From positions 32,001 to 96,000 of the forward strand of contig JABCTZ010000041.1 in NCBI GenBank assembly GCA_018238155.1: a stretch of DNA of 64,000 nucleotides. Direction: 5' to 3'. Positions within the stretch are counted from its first letter, which is position 1. Each line of letters begins with the position of its first letter. Shown here piece by piece: positions 274-4,749 of this stretch. This DNA is from Candidatus Heimdallarchaeota archaeon (GTDB lineage: Archaea; Asgardarchaeota; Heimdallarchaeia; JABLTI01). Position numbers and translations under genes: made by a program. The notes below the pieces were generated by a model. That model did not search any database. It saw only the letters and a list, made by a program, of their open reading frames with translations, and was not told the DNA's origin.

Positions 274-1818
274 ATGGATAAGAAAAAATGCCCCGAATGT
301 GAATTTATTGATGGAAAAATAATTGATGGATTAGAATTTTTTGATAAAGATCTTTTGATTTATCAAAACAAAGGATTTGCAGCGTATTATTCAAATAATC
401 CTGTAACAAATCGTCATATAATTATTCTCCCTAAAAACCATCATTTTCGAATATTAGAATTTACTCCAAAAGAGTGGAAAGAATTCGGTGAATTATTACA
501 GAATATAGGTGTAGCCAGTTCTATGAGATCTTTCAATTTAGCAGTTCATAGTGGAATTGAATTTGGAAAGCACTTGTTAATTCATCTTCTACCATCAGGA
601 AAAGAAGGGTATAAATTAGAATTAGAACCTAAAGGCAAAATAGATGCAAAGAAAAAGAAAGAGCTAGTATTGTATTCAAATGAGTCAAAGTTAAAAATGC
701 CTATAAAAGGCCGCACAATTATGCTAGAAGAATCAGCTCCCAGAAAGAAAGATATTCCATTTGAAGATATTATGCCTGGGATGCCATGTTTAGTTCATGG
801 AAAGAGGCACAATTGTGAGTTTGCTCCTCCAAAAGATGCAATATCACCAATTTACGAACCAAAGTTTGTTGAAATAGCCAAAGTGGATTATGTTAAAGAC
901 GATGATTTAGTAGCTTCTGTCACTATCAATGGAGAAACAAGAGCTTATCCAATACGATTTCTTGACTTTCATGAAATTGTAAATGATTCTATTGGAGACA
1001 CTCATTTTGCAGTTAGTTATTGTCCATTGTGTGCTTCAAGCTTAGTATTTAATAGAAAAATAAATCCTGATAAACCTCCATCGAAGTTTGGTGTTAGTGG
1101 TTTTCTTTATCAGTCAGATTTATTGATGTTTGACCACGAATCAGATAGTTTATGGAGTCAAATTGAAGGTGAAAGTATCTATGGTAAATACCTCGGAAAA
1201 GAGCTTGATTTAATACCATTCCAATTAATGAAATGGAAAAGCTGGAAAACAACCTATGTTAACGGAAAAGTTCTTTCAATAGATACTGGATTCTCTCGAG
1301 ATTATACTCATTATCCTTATGGCGAATATATGACAATGGAAAAAACCGTTTTCCCAATAAAAAGAAAAGATGAAAAGAATCGTCTCCATCCAAAGACAAT
1401 GGTCTACGGATTAGAATCTGAAGGAGTAGCAAAAGTTTATCCGGAGGATTATATTTTGGATCAAAAAATACTCCATGATACAATCGGTAAAACACCAATA
1501 GTAATCACTGTAAATCAAGCTGAAGGTGTTTTAGCTTTTGAAACTACTATTGCAGGTAAGAGTTTGACTTTCAAACGAACAGATGATGGATTATTAGATA
1601 AAGAGACAAATACAAAGTGGAATTTTCTAGGTGAAGCTGTTTCTGGACCAAAGAAAGGTTCGATGCTAAAAATCAGACCAGACTTATTGCGAATGTTCTA
1701 CTTTGCTTGGGTAGCATTTAATCCAAAGGTTGAAGTAGAAATTTATCAAAATATTCACGAACGACCAACATGGAAAGAACGCCTTTTCAGTAGATTCAAG
1801 AAAGAAGAAAAAAAATGA
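274..1818 (+). CDS. Degenerate HIT domain fused to DUF3179 domain
   Basis: N-term CPEC, PVTNRHIIILPKNH and HLLIHLLP are HIT-like. C-term RAYP...HEIVND...YCPLC...FGVSGFLYQSDLLMFD...SLWSQ...FAWVAFNP are typical DUF3179 motifs. Confidence 0.8.
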   Translation: MDKKKCPECEFIDGKIIDGLEFFDKDLLIYQNKGFAAYYSNNPVTNRHIIILPKNHHFRILEFTPKEWKEFGELLQNIGVASSMRSFNLAVHSGIEFGKHLLIHLLPSGKEGYKLELEPKGKIDAKKKKELVLYSNESKLKMPIKGRTIMLEESAPRKKDIPFEDIMPGMPCLVHGKRHNCEFAPPKDAISPIYEPKFVEIAKVDYVKDDDLVASVTINGETRAYPIRFLDFHEIVNDSIGDTHFAVSYCPLCASSLVFNRKINPDKPPSKFGVSGFLYQSDLLMFDHESDSLWSQIEGESIYGKYLGKELDLIPFQLMKWKSWKTTYVNGKVLSIDTGFSRDYTHYPYGEYMTMEKTVFPIKRKDEKNRLHPKTMVYGLESEGVAKVYPEDYILDQKILHDTIGKTPIVITVNQAEGVLAFETTIAGKSLTFKRTDDGLLDKETNTKWNFLGEAVSGPKKGSMLKIRPDLLRMFYFAWVAFNPKVEVEIYQNIHERPTWKERLFSRFKKEEKK

Positions 1819-1880
1819 CAAAATGCAGGATTATTTCTGCATTTTACCATAACAATAACTTTAAAGAAAATAATTGAACA

Positions 1881-2867
1881 TTGTTTGAGGTAGAACAGAA
1901 AATGTTACGAAATAAAGAACAGGATGCTGAAAAATCAATAATGCTTGAAGGTATTGTATTTCCTTGTGATATTTGTAAAGAAGATATTGTAATAGGAAAC
2001 TCATCACAAGGAATAAAAGTCATCTCTAAACAAACAAATTTGGATGACTTCTTTGGTACATTGGAAACCTATCACATTGAATCAGCATGTGAAGCGAATG
2101 AAATCCACGTGAATATTGTTGTAATTGATGGTCAAAAAAGATATCGTGGGCACAAATATTCTACAATAAAAACATCTGAACCTGTCGAAAAAAAGCACAG
2201 AGGTAATATTAGACTGCTATTAGGTATTGGAAAGGATTTAGCAAAAATCATTTCTTCCTCTCTACAAGGATGCTCTTTAATTCTATGTGGTGATTCACCA
2301 ACAACAACTTTGTGGGCTAACACTCTCCAAGAATTATTCACTTTATCCCCTTTTATACGTAGAAAATGGATTATTTCTGAAACTGAATTCAAAAGAAAAT
2401 TTGATTTAAATCCCATAAAAGAAGCAGGTGAATTTATTTTAATTGATGATAGTTTACTCAAAATTGTTCGAAAAAAATACTCTAAGATTACAGTAGTTGA
2501 TTTAAGGAAAAATAAAGTATATAATGCCAAGGAAAAAGAATTTGCTAAAAATTTTGTTGCTGCTGTTATGAGAATCCCAGAAACACAACATGAAGCAGTG
2601 TTGAACTATGTTACTATTCAAGTTGAATGGTTGAAAAGATTACTAGAAGAATTGAAAGGAGAAATGGATAGTTCGATAGTAGAAACAGCTGCATGTCCAA
2701 TAGGTAATTTAGCTGAAACGGTAAAGATAAACGCCGTTTTAGATCAAGTTATTACTGAAAAAGTATTAGGTGACTTGAGAGCAAGAATGAGACCAGAAGA
2801 ATTTGAGATTGTTATTGCACATCTTTTAAGAGAAGTACCGGCATTAAATGAAATTGTTCATCATTGA
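1881..2867 (+). CDS. Putative Zn-binding N-terminal domain plus DENN/folliculin-like core; possible GTPase regulator
   Basis: CDIC...H...H at N-term; LAKIISSSLQGCSLILCGD...TLQELF and ITVVDLRKNKV resemble the cDENN core; lies 15 nt upstream of a small GTPase. Confidence 0.45.
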   Translation: MFEVEQKMLRNKEQDAEKSIMLEGIVFPCDICKEDIVIGNSSQGIKVISKQTNLDDFFGTLETYHIESACEANEIHVNIVVIDGQKRYRGHKYSTIKTSEPVEKKHRGNIRLLLGIGKDLAKIISSSLQGCSLILCGDSPTTTLWANTLQELFTLSPFIRRKWIISETEFKRKFDLNPIKEAGEFILIDDSLLKIVRKKYSKITVVDLRKNKVYNAKEKEFAKNFVAAVMRIPETQHEAVLNYVTIQVEWLKRLLEELKGEMDSSIVETAACPIGNLAETVKINAVLDQVITEKVLGDLRARMRPEEFEIVIAHLLREVPALNEIVHH

Positions 2868-2882
2868 ATTGAAGGTTATACC

Positions 2883-3491
2883 ATGTCAGAAAAAAGAAAT
2901 CATACAGAAGATTACTTACTGTACCTTAAAATAACAAAGGATTTATTCAAATTTTGTGTTATAGGTGACGGTGGGGTTGGAAAATCAACTTTTATTAATT
3001 TCTTAACGACAGGTCAATTAGCTTCAAATTTTAAAGTAACACGAACCCCCTACATAAATATTGATGGCTGTAAACTTGGAGGACACACTATTCAATTATA
3101 TGATCTAGCTGGGCAAAGAAGAACTGATGCTCATCCCTTAGATCACATGCAAAATGTTATTTTAAAAGGAACAGATATAATATTGTTTTTCTTTTCGCTG
3201 GAAAATCTAGAATCGTTTATCAACATTAAAAAATGGTATGAAGAAATAAAAATATTCTATAAAGATTGGGAAAATGATAGACCACTCTTATTCCTTATAG
3301 GAAATAAACTCGATTTACCTAGAAATGTCGAATCTTTTAATGGGGAAGAGTTAGTTGAAAGAATGAATGATTTTGAGGTTTATCACGAAATTTCTTTGTT
3401 TTCTGGTAAAAACGTTGAAGACTTTTTGAAAATCCTTTGCGACAAACTAGATGAACAATTCCAAAATCTTAAAGAAATAGCTGGTTTGTAA
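2883..3491 (+). CDS. Ras-superfamily (Rab-like) small GTPase
   Basis: G1 GDGGVGKS, G3 DLAGQ, G4 NKLD, G5 EISL; no C-terminal prenylation cysteines. Confidence 0.92.
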   Translation: MSEKRNHTEDYLLYLKITKDLFKFCVIGDGGVGKSTFINFLTTGQLASNFKVTRTPYINIDGCKLGGHTIQLYDLAGQRRTDAHPLDHMQNVILKGTDIILFFFSLENLESFINIKKWYEEIKIFYKDWENDRPLLFLIGNKLDLPRNVESFNGEELVERMNDFEVYHEISLFSGKNVEDFLKILCDKLDEQFQNLKEIAGL

Positions 3492-3846
3492 AAAAAATTC
3501 TCTCTGAAAATGAAAGCTATACTTTAATTCTTGATATACTCATTGATGTATCCTGATAAAAACATTCCAATATAATAGTTATACTAATTATTTTTCTAGC
3601 TGTAGTTATAATTGCTTAATTGATCAATAAAAATAGAGATTTTCATTAGTTATTTTTTACAATATTTTTTGAATGGGTTTCAATTTTAAACTCAAGATTC
3701 AGAAGAGTAAACTATTTAATTAAGTATTTTGATAAATAAACACAATTAGGCCAAATATAGAGATCAATAAATAAGGGTGTTTATCACATCCTTTCAGTCT
3801 CTATTTTCAGAATATTTATCTTGGAATAAATTATTCAATTATTGAG

Positions 3847-4749
3847 GTGTTTAATGTTAAAACAAAGAGGATATATGTTTTAATACTAATCGGAGCTATC
3901 TTTTGTATAAGTAATAATATCAATCATGTGAATGGAGAATATCAAGTAAGTATTGGTGAAATATATCAATATGATATCATTAAAGCAGAAGTTAATAGCA
4001 CTTTCAATGGACATTTCGAAACTGGTTCAGGATATACTATAGACTCCAATCATTTAGAAGAAAATACTATGGTCTCTTATGAGATAACTGAGGTAAACAC
4101 ATTAGGGGTTTTTTGGAATCTTTCAAGTGGTGGTTTTTCTCATAATCATGTCTCGGATGATACAATTATAAATTCATATGAAAATCTACTCACACAATGT
4201 TTTGCGTTGCCAAAAATATATGATCCAATTCATTCAGATATAGAGAATGGAACAGGGCTAGTATTCTACAGTCCGTTTATTGATCCAATAAATGAAAATT
4301 GGGAGATAATCAAAAATGTTGAGGATTATGTAGAAAATACAATCGATCTTTTAACAGACACAAAAATAACTTATGAGATGGATTCACTTTTAAAAGAATC
4401 AAATTCAAAACTCTCAATAGAATTTGTTCTTGGAGGAACAATTGATGGCAAATGGGCAAATGTACCCATCAATGCAAAATTTATGAACCATTTACTAATT
4501 GAATTTGATAAAATAAATGGTGTTTTCCTTGGTTTGAGAATGAAATCAAGCATTGATGGTTCTTATAACTCCAATACAGTTAATATTACAATTTCTTTCC
4601 AATCAGAAATGAAAGATTATAATATACCATCTTTTACTAAAAATGATATAACAAAAGTATCAGGTGTTTTTGGAGAAGGAATATTAATTGGTTTAAGCTC
4701 GTTACTAATTCTAACGATTTTAGTTTCAAAGAGAAAAGAAAGTAGATAA
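3847..4749 (+). CDS. Secreted, C-terminally anchored surface protein (choice-of-anchor S-like)
   Basis: Signal peptide, beta-rich body with FDKINGVFLGLRM, C-terminal TM followed by KRKESR; similar to 38261-39199. Confidence 0.6.
   Translation: MFNVKTKRIYVLILIGAIFCISNNINHVNGEYQVSIGEIYQYDIIKAEVNSTFNGHFETGSGYTIDSNHLEENTMVSYEITEVNTLGVFWNLSSGGFSHNHVSDDTIINSYENLLTQCFALPKIYDPIHSDIENGTGLVFYSPFIDPINENWEIIKNVEDYVENTIDLLTDTKITYEMDSLLKESNSKLSIEFVLGGTIDGKWANVPINAKFMNHLLIEFDKINGVFLGLRMKSSIDGSYNSNTVNITISFQSEMKDYNIPSFTKNDITKVSGVFGEGILIGLSSLLILTILVSKRKESR

Follow-up and report, generated by a model that had tools for sequence, protein, structure and literature searches.

DENND1A and DENND1B, the GEFs of Rab35 (PDB 6EKK and 3TW8), have two lobes, the C-lobe combining cDENN and dDENN regions, and act on a Rab-type client. 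Rab35 contacts chiefly the DENN C-lobe of DENND1B, the longin accounting for 6 of the 21 contacts, and a C-terminal DENN fragment of folliculin alone has weak Rab35 exchange activity in vitro (PMC3747258). DENN lobes are also found in folliculin (PDB 3V42; FLCN–FNIP2 complexes 6NZD and 6ULG) and in the SMCR8–C9orf72 pair. Within the Asgard archaea, Liu et al. (bioRxiv 10.1101/2020.10.19.343400; Nature 2021) describe an operon in which a DENN protein is encoded together with a Rab-like GTPase and a Roadblock protein resembling LAMTOR1, report expanded DENN paralogues, and note Asgard DENN architectures that are unlike the eukaryotic ones. Finally, a small Ras-like GTPase and the regulator next to it share a single mobile operon in the MglA/MglB systems (PMC3521125).

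The locus that we analysed lies in a 64,000-nucleotide window, the whole stretch of Candidatus Heimdallarchaeota archaeon DNA introduced above, and all of its features are on the + strand. It comprises gene X (1902–2867), an open reading frame for a protein of 321 amino acids predicted to consist of a zinc-type beta domain and a DENN lobe that lacks a longin, followed by an ATG-started gene for a Rab-like small GTPase of 202 amino acids (2883–3491) that matches Pfam Ras. The TGA stop codon of gene X occupies nucleotides 2865–2867, and a 15-nt spacer (2868–2882) containing a GAAGGT ribosome-binding-like motif separates it from the GTPase start codon. A terminator scan of the + strand from 1700 to 3900 returned zero sites, hence none between the two genes. 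The 15-nt spacer, the SD-like motif and the lack of a terminator are best explained by cotranscription of the two genes as a putative two-gene operon. A sequence-only reading of this DNA had begun the first reading frame at an in-frame TTG (1881–2867, 328 amino acids). Its placement of the GTPase 15 nt downstream on the same strand stood, as did every peptide string that it cited, all of which occur in the X translation; its TTG start did not, as ATG 1902 appears to be the likelier start codon. A GAGGT sequence is located at 1887–1891, upstream of this ATG, and the orthologue in a genome of the same genus (G001) is an ATG-started open reading frame of 321 amino acids.

A scan for sigma-70-type promoters, a type that is uninformative for an archaeon, found fewer matches than in shuffled sequences. 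We also noted a TTTAAAG sequence at 1860–1866 that may be a TATA box. Among the sequencing runs listed, none contained this DNA, RNA runs included. The gene upstream of the pair (274–1818) encodes a weak HIT-like region fused to DUF3179 (Pfam E values of 1.6e-3 and 3.5e-87, respectively). This gene precedes the pair in the close relatives L006 and L007 and is absent beside the pair in L029–L033; it is probably outside the X–GTPase unit. The other flanking gene encodes an orphan protein of 300 amino acids, and neither neighbor is a LAMTOR1-like Roadblock gene. Thus, as in the operon that Liu et al. describe, an archaeal DENN protein is encoded beside a Rab-like GTPase, whereas the unit studied here consists of two co-directional genes without a Roadblock gene and its GTPase belongs to a different clade. 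A probable example of the Liu-type operon is present 28 kb upstream on the same contig, and its GTPase (C4:1618) is not a member of the beta-domain-linked clade. The X–GTPase unit likewise resembles MglA/MglB operons; however, MglB is a dimer of the Roadblock/longin type and X has neither fold.

The sequence-only reading had recognized a cDENN/dDENN pattern in the center of X, and structure prediction and fold searches bore this out. An AlphaFold2 model of X (pLDDT 80.2, pTM 0.72) assigned residues ~97–321 (nucleotides 2190–2864) to a three-layer alpha/beta sandwich of the cDENN type and the dDENN helices that come after it. The top VIA match was the folliculin C-terminal domain (3v42_B; Z 13.4, 173 of 199 residues aligned, rmsd 3.3), followed by SMCR8 (Z 12.3), DENND10 (11.9), DENND1A (11.7) and C9orf72 (11.0). 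These matches, with Z scores of 11 to 13.4, spanned model residues ~94–321, and the best unrelated fold reached a Z of 7.8. Foldseek identified DENND1A with an E value of 3.3e-5 and a probability of 1.00, and Atlas rows carried PF02141 (DENN). Conversely, no Pfam family matched X even at E values up to 10, the DENN, dDENN, uDENN and Folliculin models included, which sets it apart from DENND1A and DENND1B; none of 10 X-family members matched a Pfam family either, and NCBIfam and PDB sequence searches with X gave nothing meaningful. The X family did align by hhalign with a family of same-genus paralogues that carry the Pfam Folliculin longin (probability 94.4%, E 9e-8); one such paralogue from this genome, L004, scores 24.3 bits with PF11704, for which the cut-off is 23.3. 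Because there is no curated Pfam match and the connection runs through this paralogue family, the sequence link between X and DENN proteins is indirect. To judge from the predicted structure, X ends in a genuine DENN lobe that is homologous to the corresponding lobes of folliculin, SMCR8 and the DENND proteins, and its closest structural matches are folliculin and then SMCR8. X differs from folliculin and SMCR8 in having no longin and in showing no sign of an FNIP-like heterodimer partner, and its putative client is Rab-like rather than a Rag or Arf GTPase.

In place of the N-terminal longin (uDENN) lobe, residues ~17–92 of X (nucleotides 1950–2177) form an all-beta CxxC/His domain according to an alignment of 16 sequences and the predicted structure, a further difference from DENND1A and DENND1B. 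C22, C25, H69, N71 and D76 are invariant in the alignment, and E67 and R82 are nearly so, R82 being part of a YRG motif and replaced by Lys in one of the 16 N-domains. The residues probably include a zinc site. When modeled alone the domain contained six strands and zero helices (pLDDT 81). Its best VIA match had a Z of 5.8, to beta-propeller blades of generic beta-meander type, with no longin among the matches listed, Foldseek found nothing below 1e-3, and an ESM Atlas feature search yielded nothing beyond unnamed Asgard clusters (0.85), to be taken as leads. We considered a longin identity for this domain and rejected it. The fold searches revealed no longin, which by itself is weak evidence; the main argument is that a helix-free structure is incompatible with the alpha-beta-alpha sandwich of longins. 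The earlier proposal that a CxxC/His domain replaces the longin was therefore upheld by the predicted structure and the fold search. Without a longin, X also lacks both the GP motif and the arginine finger found in the catalytic longins of folliculin, SMCR8 and NPRL2, even though folliculin-type longins are present in paralogues of the same genome. GAP action of the folliculin kind depends on that finger. The beta domain is shared with non-DENN proteins, the alignment being confined to N-domain columns (hhalign 97.2%, E 3.8e-11). Homology to the zinc-type N-terminal regions of two DENN families, of 565 and 286 amino acids, is not claimed, the match being borderline at 50.8% (E 1.6e-4) and 4.8% with a single sequence; the 50.8% match is the one that relates the beta domain to the N-terminus encoded at the Liu-type locus 28 kb upstream.

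The neighboring GTPase is a Ras superfamily member (Pfam Ras, E 7.5e-21) whose best PDB relatives are Rab9A (4e-15) and a Thorarchaeota Rab (2e-12), with Rab27 and Ypt7 also among the top matches. It contains GDGGVGKS (G1), RTP (switch I Thr), DLAGQ (switch II with the catalytic Gln) and NKLD (G4), and GxGxxGK[ST], RT(P), DxAGQ and NKxD are invariant in an alignment of the linked GTPases. A conserved N-terminal extension of ~20 residues precedes these motifs. The tail ends in KEIAGL with no C-terminal Cys, and so has no prenylation motif, as is also the case for the crystallized Thor-Rab (PMC10933270). In a tree of archaeal sequences, all 15 GTPases linked to the beta domain formed one clade (UFBoot 96, aLRT 93) that excluded 20 other small GTPases of this genome. 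The protein is best explained as a Rab-like member of a dedicated Asgard clade, to judge from these sequence comparisons.

Conserved adjacency of the two genes had been another expectation, and synteny agreed with it. X precedes the GTPase on the same strand, 9–77 nt apart, in 8 distinct contexts with differing flanking genes and identities down to 28%, one of them in a relative labeled Thorarchaeota. In 7 further loci the beta domain is fused to other C-termini (TPR, a wHTH-like region or an unrelated alpha/beta region; TPR was confirmed in one fusion protein) and still adjoins a GTPase gene. Altogether, 15 of the 16 beta-domain loci examined had an adjacent GTPase gene, in two gene orders and with several architectures, always from the one clade. 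In this genome, 2 of the 9 DENN-core proteins adjoin a small-GTPase gene, where random placement of a gene would lead one to expect about 2%, and 6 of the 9 have no GTPase gene within 5 kb. Adjacency tracks the beta domain and not the DENN lobe, and the presence of the former predicts a GTPase neighbor better than does that of the latter. It follows that the DENN lobe need not touch the neighboring GTPase. The possibility of a cryptic DENN lobe in the C-terminal half of the L003-type partners was rejected, as hhalign gave 0.1% against DENN profiles with only the N-domain aligning; an Atlas search with this half retrieved unnamed clusters. Nor was X found fused to a GTPase or other domain among proteins of 581–2000 amino acids at E values up to 1e-3, which is weak evidence.

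Trees of the N-domain and of the GTPase recovered the same shallow groups. However, they disagreed on the placement of the L034 pair and the TPR-type pairs, so strict co-divergence at depth is unsupported. In one genome of the same genus the GTPase gene is intact beside a truncated X remnant, suggesting either that X is dispensable there or that the assembly is faulty. Although the DENN fold, the non-longin N-domain and the conserved adjacency all agreed with the view of the sequence-only reading that the two genes form a regulator–GTPase pair, its description of the pair as an ancestral switch found no support: the X family is small, with 11 matches among 1.84 billion representative proteins, and patchy even inside the genus.

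Prediction of the X–GTPase complex, a check that had been proposed for the pair, supports the pairing weakly. The median ipSAE of 0.35 (best control, 0.00) cleared a mark that 58 of 80 solved complexes and 2 of 110 mismatched pairs also clear, although a pass no higher than 0.60 is wrong more often than it is right if the pairing was not likely beforehand. Contact agreement between runs was at least 57% and partner pLDDT at least 72, whereas one of the three runs scored 0.01 and no interface was returned. The pass may also mirror the likeness of the pair to solved DENND1–Rab35 complexes.

Our preferred model is an operon pair in which a GEF-like, two-lobed X cradles its GTPase, and we would put its chances slightly below even. 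X would be the cognate partner of the GTPase encoded in its operon. The beta domain, in the position of the longin, would be the GTPase-recognizing module because it travels with the GTPase clade whatever C-terminal module is attached. The two lobes would hold the GTPase as DENND1B holds Rab35, with the DENN lobe engaging the switch regions and promoting GDP release, which would make X GEF-like. Direct binding of X to the GTPase is quite likely; exchange activity is a tentative proposal with somewhat poorer prospects than not. X differs from DENND1A and DENND1B in that it shares an operon with its putative client and in that its activity is presumed. That X resembles folliculin (Z of 13.4) more closely in structure than it does a DENND GEF (11.7) counts against the GEF model. 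It would be more readily accommodated if X were an effector or adaptor, an unlikely but serious alternative in which the GTPase is bound by the beta domain, possibly in the GTP-loaded state alone, and the DENN lobe is the output, either as a dimerization or scaffold surface as in folliculin–FNIP and SMCR8–C9orf72 or as a regulator of a second GTPase in the manner of a Rab cascade. In the folliculin–FNIP2–Rag complex of Lawrence et al. 2019, the DENN domains reportedly dimerize distally without contacting the GTPase domains, and the folliculin DENN domain, the nearest fold to that of X, is thus said to serve dimerization there. Moreover, retention of the GTPase neighbor while the C-terminus varies would suit a binding module with exchangeable outputs. 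On the other hand, Rab contacts in DENND1B fall mostly on the C-lobe (PMC3747258), prokaryotes normally pair a GTPase with its regulator in tight two-gene operons, MglA/MglB for example, and the conserved part of the locus has neither a second candidate GTPase gene nor a gene for a DENN partner.

The beta domain might instead supply a new catalytic arginine. X would then be a GAP of a new type, with Arg82 as an arginine finger complementing the catalytic Gln of the GTPase. Longin-DENN relatives set a precedent in that folliculin and SMCR8 act as GAPs through an Arg of the N-terminal lobe; however, that known finger belongs to a longin fold with a GP motif (PMC12290439), neither of which X has. 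R82 is present in 15 of the 16 N-domains, together with the invariant N71 and D76 and the near-invariant E67, and the GTPase clade retains DxxGQ, such that stimulation by a finger in trans is possible. Yet a conserved Arg beside a probable zinc site could be merely structural and the complex prediction yielded no interface model, and we regard a GAP as improbable. It is also conceivable that X and the GTPase are cotranscribed and their products do not bind, the function of X being unrelated to GTPases. The weak complex prediction, the many DENN-core paralogues of this genome without a GTPase neighbor and the congener that kept the GTPase and lost most of X are consistent with this explanation. 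Nevertheless, adjacency in 15 of 16 beta-domain loci, in two gene orders, with several architectures and with a single GTPase clade, is hard to explain without functional coupling, leaving independence of the two products a slim chance. A bolder reading is that the beta domain is a previously undescribed small-GTPase recognition module, co-evolving with one Rab-like clade of the Asgard archaea and serving exchangeable outputs (DENN, TPR and wHTH-like), such that X and its GTPase form a minimal longin-independent DENN switch. We advance this with considerable doubt.

Small GTPases number in the dozens in Asgard archaea, which also encode many proteins of the longin, Roadblock and DENN types. 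Matching regulators to their clients is difficult because, as found for MK-D1, GTPase genes are generally not in operons with such regulators (Tran et al., PMC10933270). DENN–GTPase operons of Asgard archaea are already on record (Liu et al.), and the X unit is a variant in which a beta domain replaces the longin; coupling that follows a beta domain through its fusions to DENN, TPR and other modules is not described in the text consulted. At this locus one DENN-fold protein and one GTPase are paired in a conserved manner, and there are signs of a second partner domain, as yet undescribed. With 321 and 202 amino acids, the two proteins are small and well suited to reconstitution. Whether X proves to be a GEF, a GAP or an effector, the outcome would tell what a DENN lobe does without a longin and would bear on how the longin-DENN regulators of eukaryotes were assembled. 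If X and its GTPase are indeed a longin-independent switch of the kind envisaged, the link between DENN lobe and GTPases would predate the joining of that lobe to longins or would have arisen apart from it.

We found that the gene for a 321-aa protein (X; 1902..2867, + strand) and the GTPase gene that follows it form a two-gene unit. The sequence-only reading had described the upstream gene as a 328-aa ORF (1881..2867, +) lying 15 nt ahead of a GTPase on the same strand; both ORFs are in the ORF listing, the GTPase as a 202-aa product (2883..3491, +), and every peptide string quoted in that reading was found in the translation. Although the longer ORF with its TTG start at 1881 is present, its 5′ end was probably misplaced, because GAGGT (1887-1891) precedes the ATG at 1902 and the orthologue in the same genus likewise begins at an ATG and spans 321 aa. 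Residue numbers therefore refer to the 321-aa form. The 15-nt spacer contains GAAGGT, and a scan found no terminator-like site between the two genes. The window belongs to a 4.08-Mb assembly of 46 contigs with ~31% G+C (G000:C4:32001-96000).

A thioredoxin gene and a HIT-like/DUF3179 fusion (2-1818) lie immediately 5′ of the pair. DUF3179 is also 5′ of the pair in two close relatives, and in a distant relative DUF3179 and thioredoxin occur ~1.2 kb 3′ of it (L034:2927-4623). This link, absent at the pair in loci L029-L033, may be loose but recurring. The gene 3′ of the GTPase (3847-4749, +) specifies a product of 300 aa that carries hydrophobic segments at both termini and matched no family. 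Because the genes called at this position in the relatives' loci vary in length and Pfam content, it is probably outside the two-gene unit.

X had no match in Pfam, NCBIfam or PDB sequences and belongs to a small family (4 clusters at 90% identity; 11 matches among 1.84 billion representative proteins). Its closest homologues are labelled ‘Asgard group archaeon’ and ‘Candidatus Hodarchaeota archaeon’, and a more distant cluster ‘Candidatus Thorarchaeota archaeon’. From a 13-row alignment, AlphaFold2 gave a model with a pLDDT of 80.2 and a pTM of 0.72, in which residues 101-250 have pLDDT 81-95. When this model was compared with the PDB by Foldseek, DENND1A ranked first (6ekk_A, E 3.3e-5, probability 1.00), followed by C9orf72, DENND1B, SMCR8, DENND10 and folliculin; DENND1B, folliculin and C9orf72 were the three comparisons suggested beforehand. 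An independent fold search of 48,161 chains returned the folliculin C-terminal domain (Z 13.4, 173 aligned, rmsd 3.3), SMCR8 (12.3), DENND10 (11.9), DENND1A (11.7) and C9orf72 (11.0), the first non-DENN fold being the GspE ATPase (Z 7.8). At the sequence level, residues 75-269 matched a 387-aa paralogue in the same genome (BLASTP 8e-6), which carries a Pfam Folliculin longin domain (24.3 bits against a gathering score of 23.3) and a weak C9orf72-like match. Profiles of the two families aligned with 94.4% probability (E 9e-8) over X 99-286 and the C-terminal 189-361 of the paralogue, and an ESM Atlas search reached a Heimdall-dominated cluster, 23% of whose members carry PF11704, as well as several eukaryotic PF02141 DENN clusters. 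Together, the modelled fold and the sequence and profile matches indicate that residues ~97-321 are a genuine cDENN+dDENN lobe, in agreement with the pattern initially recognized from the sequence alone.

The sequence-only reading had also placed a CxxC/His domain where eukaryotes have a longin. Residues ~17-92 were modelled as six β strands without a helix, both in the full model and alone (pLDDT 81 alone), and a longin identity was rejected since this predicted topology is not an α-β-α sandwich. Searched alone, the domain gave generic fold matches only (best Z 5.8, propeller blades) and nothing below 1e-3 by Foldseek. Among 16 sequences C22, C25, H69, N71 and D76 are invariant and E67 and R82 nearly so; a putative zinc site formed by the CxxC and His/Cys residues is plausible.

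By its Pfam matches (Ras, E 7.5e-21; Roc, 6e-11) the downstream product is assigned to the Ras superfamily, its closest solved relatives being Rab9A (4e-15) and a Thorarchaeota Rab (2e-12), then Rab27 and Ypt7. Every one of eight aligned sequences, orthologues and paralogues together, has GxGxxGK[ST] (G1), RT (with the switch I Thr), DxAGQ and NKxD, so the protein seems to be a functional switch that retains a catalytic Gln. Since its N terminus is lengthened by a conserved stretch of ~20 residues and a C-terminal Cys is absent, ‘Rab-like’ is meant as loosely here as it is for Asgard GTPases elsewhere (PMC10933270). The extension (2883-2950, residues 1-22), which precedes strand 1, has the pattern L..LK..K..FK, is conserved in the clade and looks amphipathic; it might act as a membrane or regulatory helix of the Arf type.

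The pair was syntenic in eight distinct contexts: the window, G001 (another genome of the genus), an Asgard-group MAG, a Hodarchaeota MAG and four more distant relatives (28-35% identity), one of which has a cluster mate labelled Thorarchaeota. In each, X is followed on the same strand by a Ras-family GTPase gene after 9-77 nt. The flanks vary (DUF3179 5′ in close relatives, Metallophos and SNF genes elsewhere), and only the pair itself is conserved across all eight.

This adjacency follows the β domain, and the DENN core alone is a weaker predictor of a GTPase neighbour. Two of the nine DENN-core proteins of this genome adjoin a GTPase gene (X and a 565-aa protein 28 kb upstream), against a chance expectation of ~2% for a gap of at most 300 nt; another is 1.9 kb from one, and the other six have none within 5 kb. 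The N-domain profile also finds proteins with non-DENN C-terminal parts: a ~315-aa type (one copy in this genome, contig C24), two proteins of 762 and 764 aa with TPR repeats (TPR_12 2.6e-14 in the 764-aa one, which was the one scanned against Pfam) and a 186-aa protein with a wHTH-like tail. By hhalign the ~315-aa type matched X over the N-domain only (97.2%, E 3.8e-11) and did not match DENN profiles. Seven non-DENN β-domain loci have a GTPase gene directly upstream on the same strand, and the sole β-domain locus without one is interrupted by a contig end. The 15 GTPases adjoining β-domain genes group as one clade in a maximum-likelihood tree (UFBoot 96/SH-aLRT 93), with 20 other small GTPases of this genome falling outside it. 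The N-domain tree repeats the shallow groups of the GTPase tree; two deeper placements disagree.

Several individual loci illustrate these arrangements. A second pair in this genome (G000:C24:31098-32666; L003:781-2343, minus strand) has the reverse order, a 200-aa same-clade GTPase and then a 319-aa protein that has only the CxxC/His β domain in common with X; its C-terminal half had no DENN-profile match and no Pfam family. At L035:2121-7350 (G030:C14) a same-clade GTPase precedes tandem 764- and 762-aa paralogues, both beginning with the β domain. A different 762-aa protein (G000:C39:182739-185039; L002:376-2664) contains tandem DENN cores (residues ~393-535 and ~577-721) behind weak wHTH-type Pfam matches, and its contig has no GTPase gene within 100 kb of it.

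DENN domains have been reported in Asgard archaea, where the paralogue families are expanded with non-eukaryotic architectures and a conserved operon encodes a LAMTOR1-like Roadblock, a Rab-like GTPase and a DENN protein (Liu et al., bioRxiv 10.1101/2020.10.19.343400). DENN-fold relatives of DENND10 were noted in Archaea and Bacteria by a later paper but not followed further there (PMC13392464). Because of these reports, the general idea of DENN-GTPase pairing in Asgard archaea is not new. Unlike that operon, the X pair has no Roadblock gene, its genes are co-directional, its GTPase is from a different clade and its coupling tracks a separate N-domain. The Liu et al. unit is probably represented at G000:C4:1140-4031 (L039), where a 153-aa ORF without a Pfam match, the candidate Roadblock, and a 228-aa Ras-family GTPase (Pfam Ras 6.8e-33) converge on the 565-aa protein, which combines a DENN core with a CxxC-bearing N-terminus. 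Its N-terminus gave a borderline profile match to the β domain (50.8%, E 1.6e-4).

At this locus, then, X joins a DENN lobe to a new N-lobe and is encoded in an operon with a GTPase of a dedicated clade. These results confirmed the original observation and, with caveats, supported its interpretation as a regulator-GTPase pair. X probably binds its neighbour directly. Complex prediction lent this weak support, passing its mark at a median ipSAE of 0.35 (runs 0.01, 0.37 and 0.35; best control 0.00). Of 80 solved complexes 58 reach this mark, as do 2 of 110 mismatched pairs, but a pass at or below 0.60 is wrong more often than it is right unless the pairing was already likely. Contacts agreed between runs to at least 57%, and the partner's pLDDT was 72 or more. 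The prediction gave no interface, and its score may partly reflect resemblance to the solved DENND1-Rab35 complexes.

As to what X would do once bound, we tentatively favour a GEF-like action, because the DENN C-lobe supplies most Rab35 contacts in DENND1B and a longin-less C-terminal fragment of folliculin has weak Rab35 exchange activity in vitro (PMC3747258). An effector or adaptor role fits the modular β-domain pattern equally well, but we consider it rather unlikely. The arginine finger of folliculin-type GAPs is located in the longin domain (PMC12290439), which excludes that mechanism as such for X; a GAP using a new finger, R82 of the β domain, would be more improbable still.

The pair had been proposed as an ancestral switch, which the distribution of X does not support. 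A full-length orthologue is present in this genome and in 1 of 10 other genomes of the genus, and none was found in the remaining eight (69-92% complete). A third genome (G009) retains only a C-terminal remnant of X, ~105 residues at high identity, beside an intact GTPase gene, reflecting either natural loss or an assembly fault; there (L011:1600-2654, G009:C24) an unrelated membrane-protein gene on the opposite strand stands in place of the DUF3179 gene and the 5′ part of X. Thus the pair is patchy within the genus. Its value is as a clean, testable regulator-GTPase pair, with an undescribed β domain that marks the partners of one GTPase clade.
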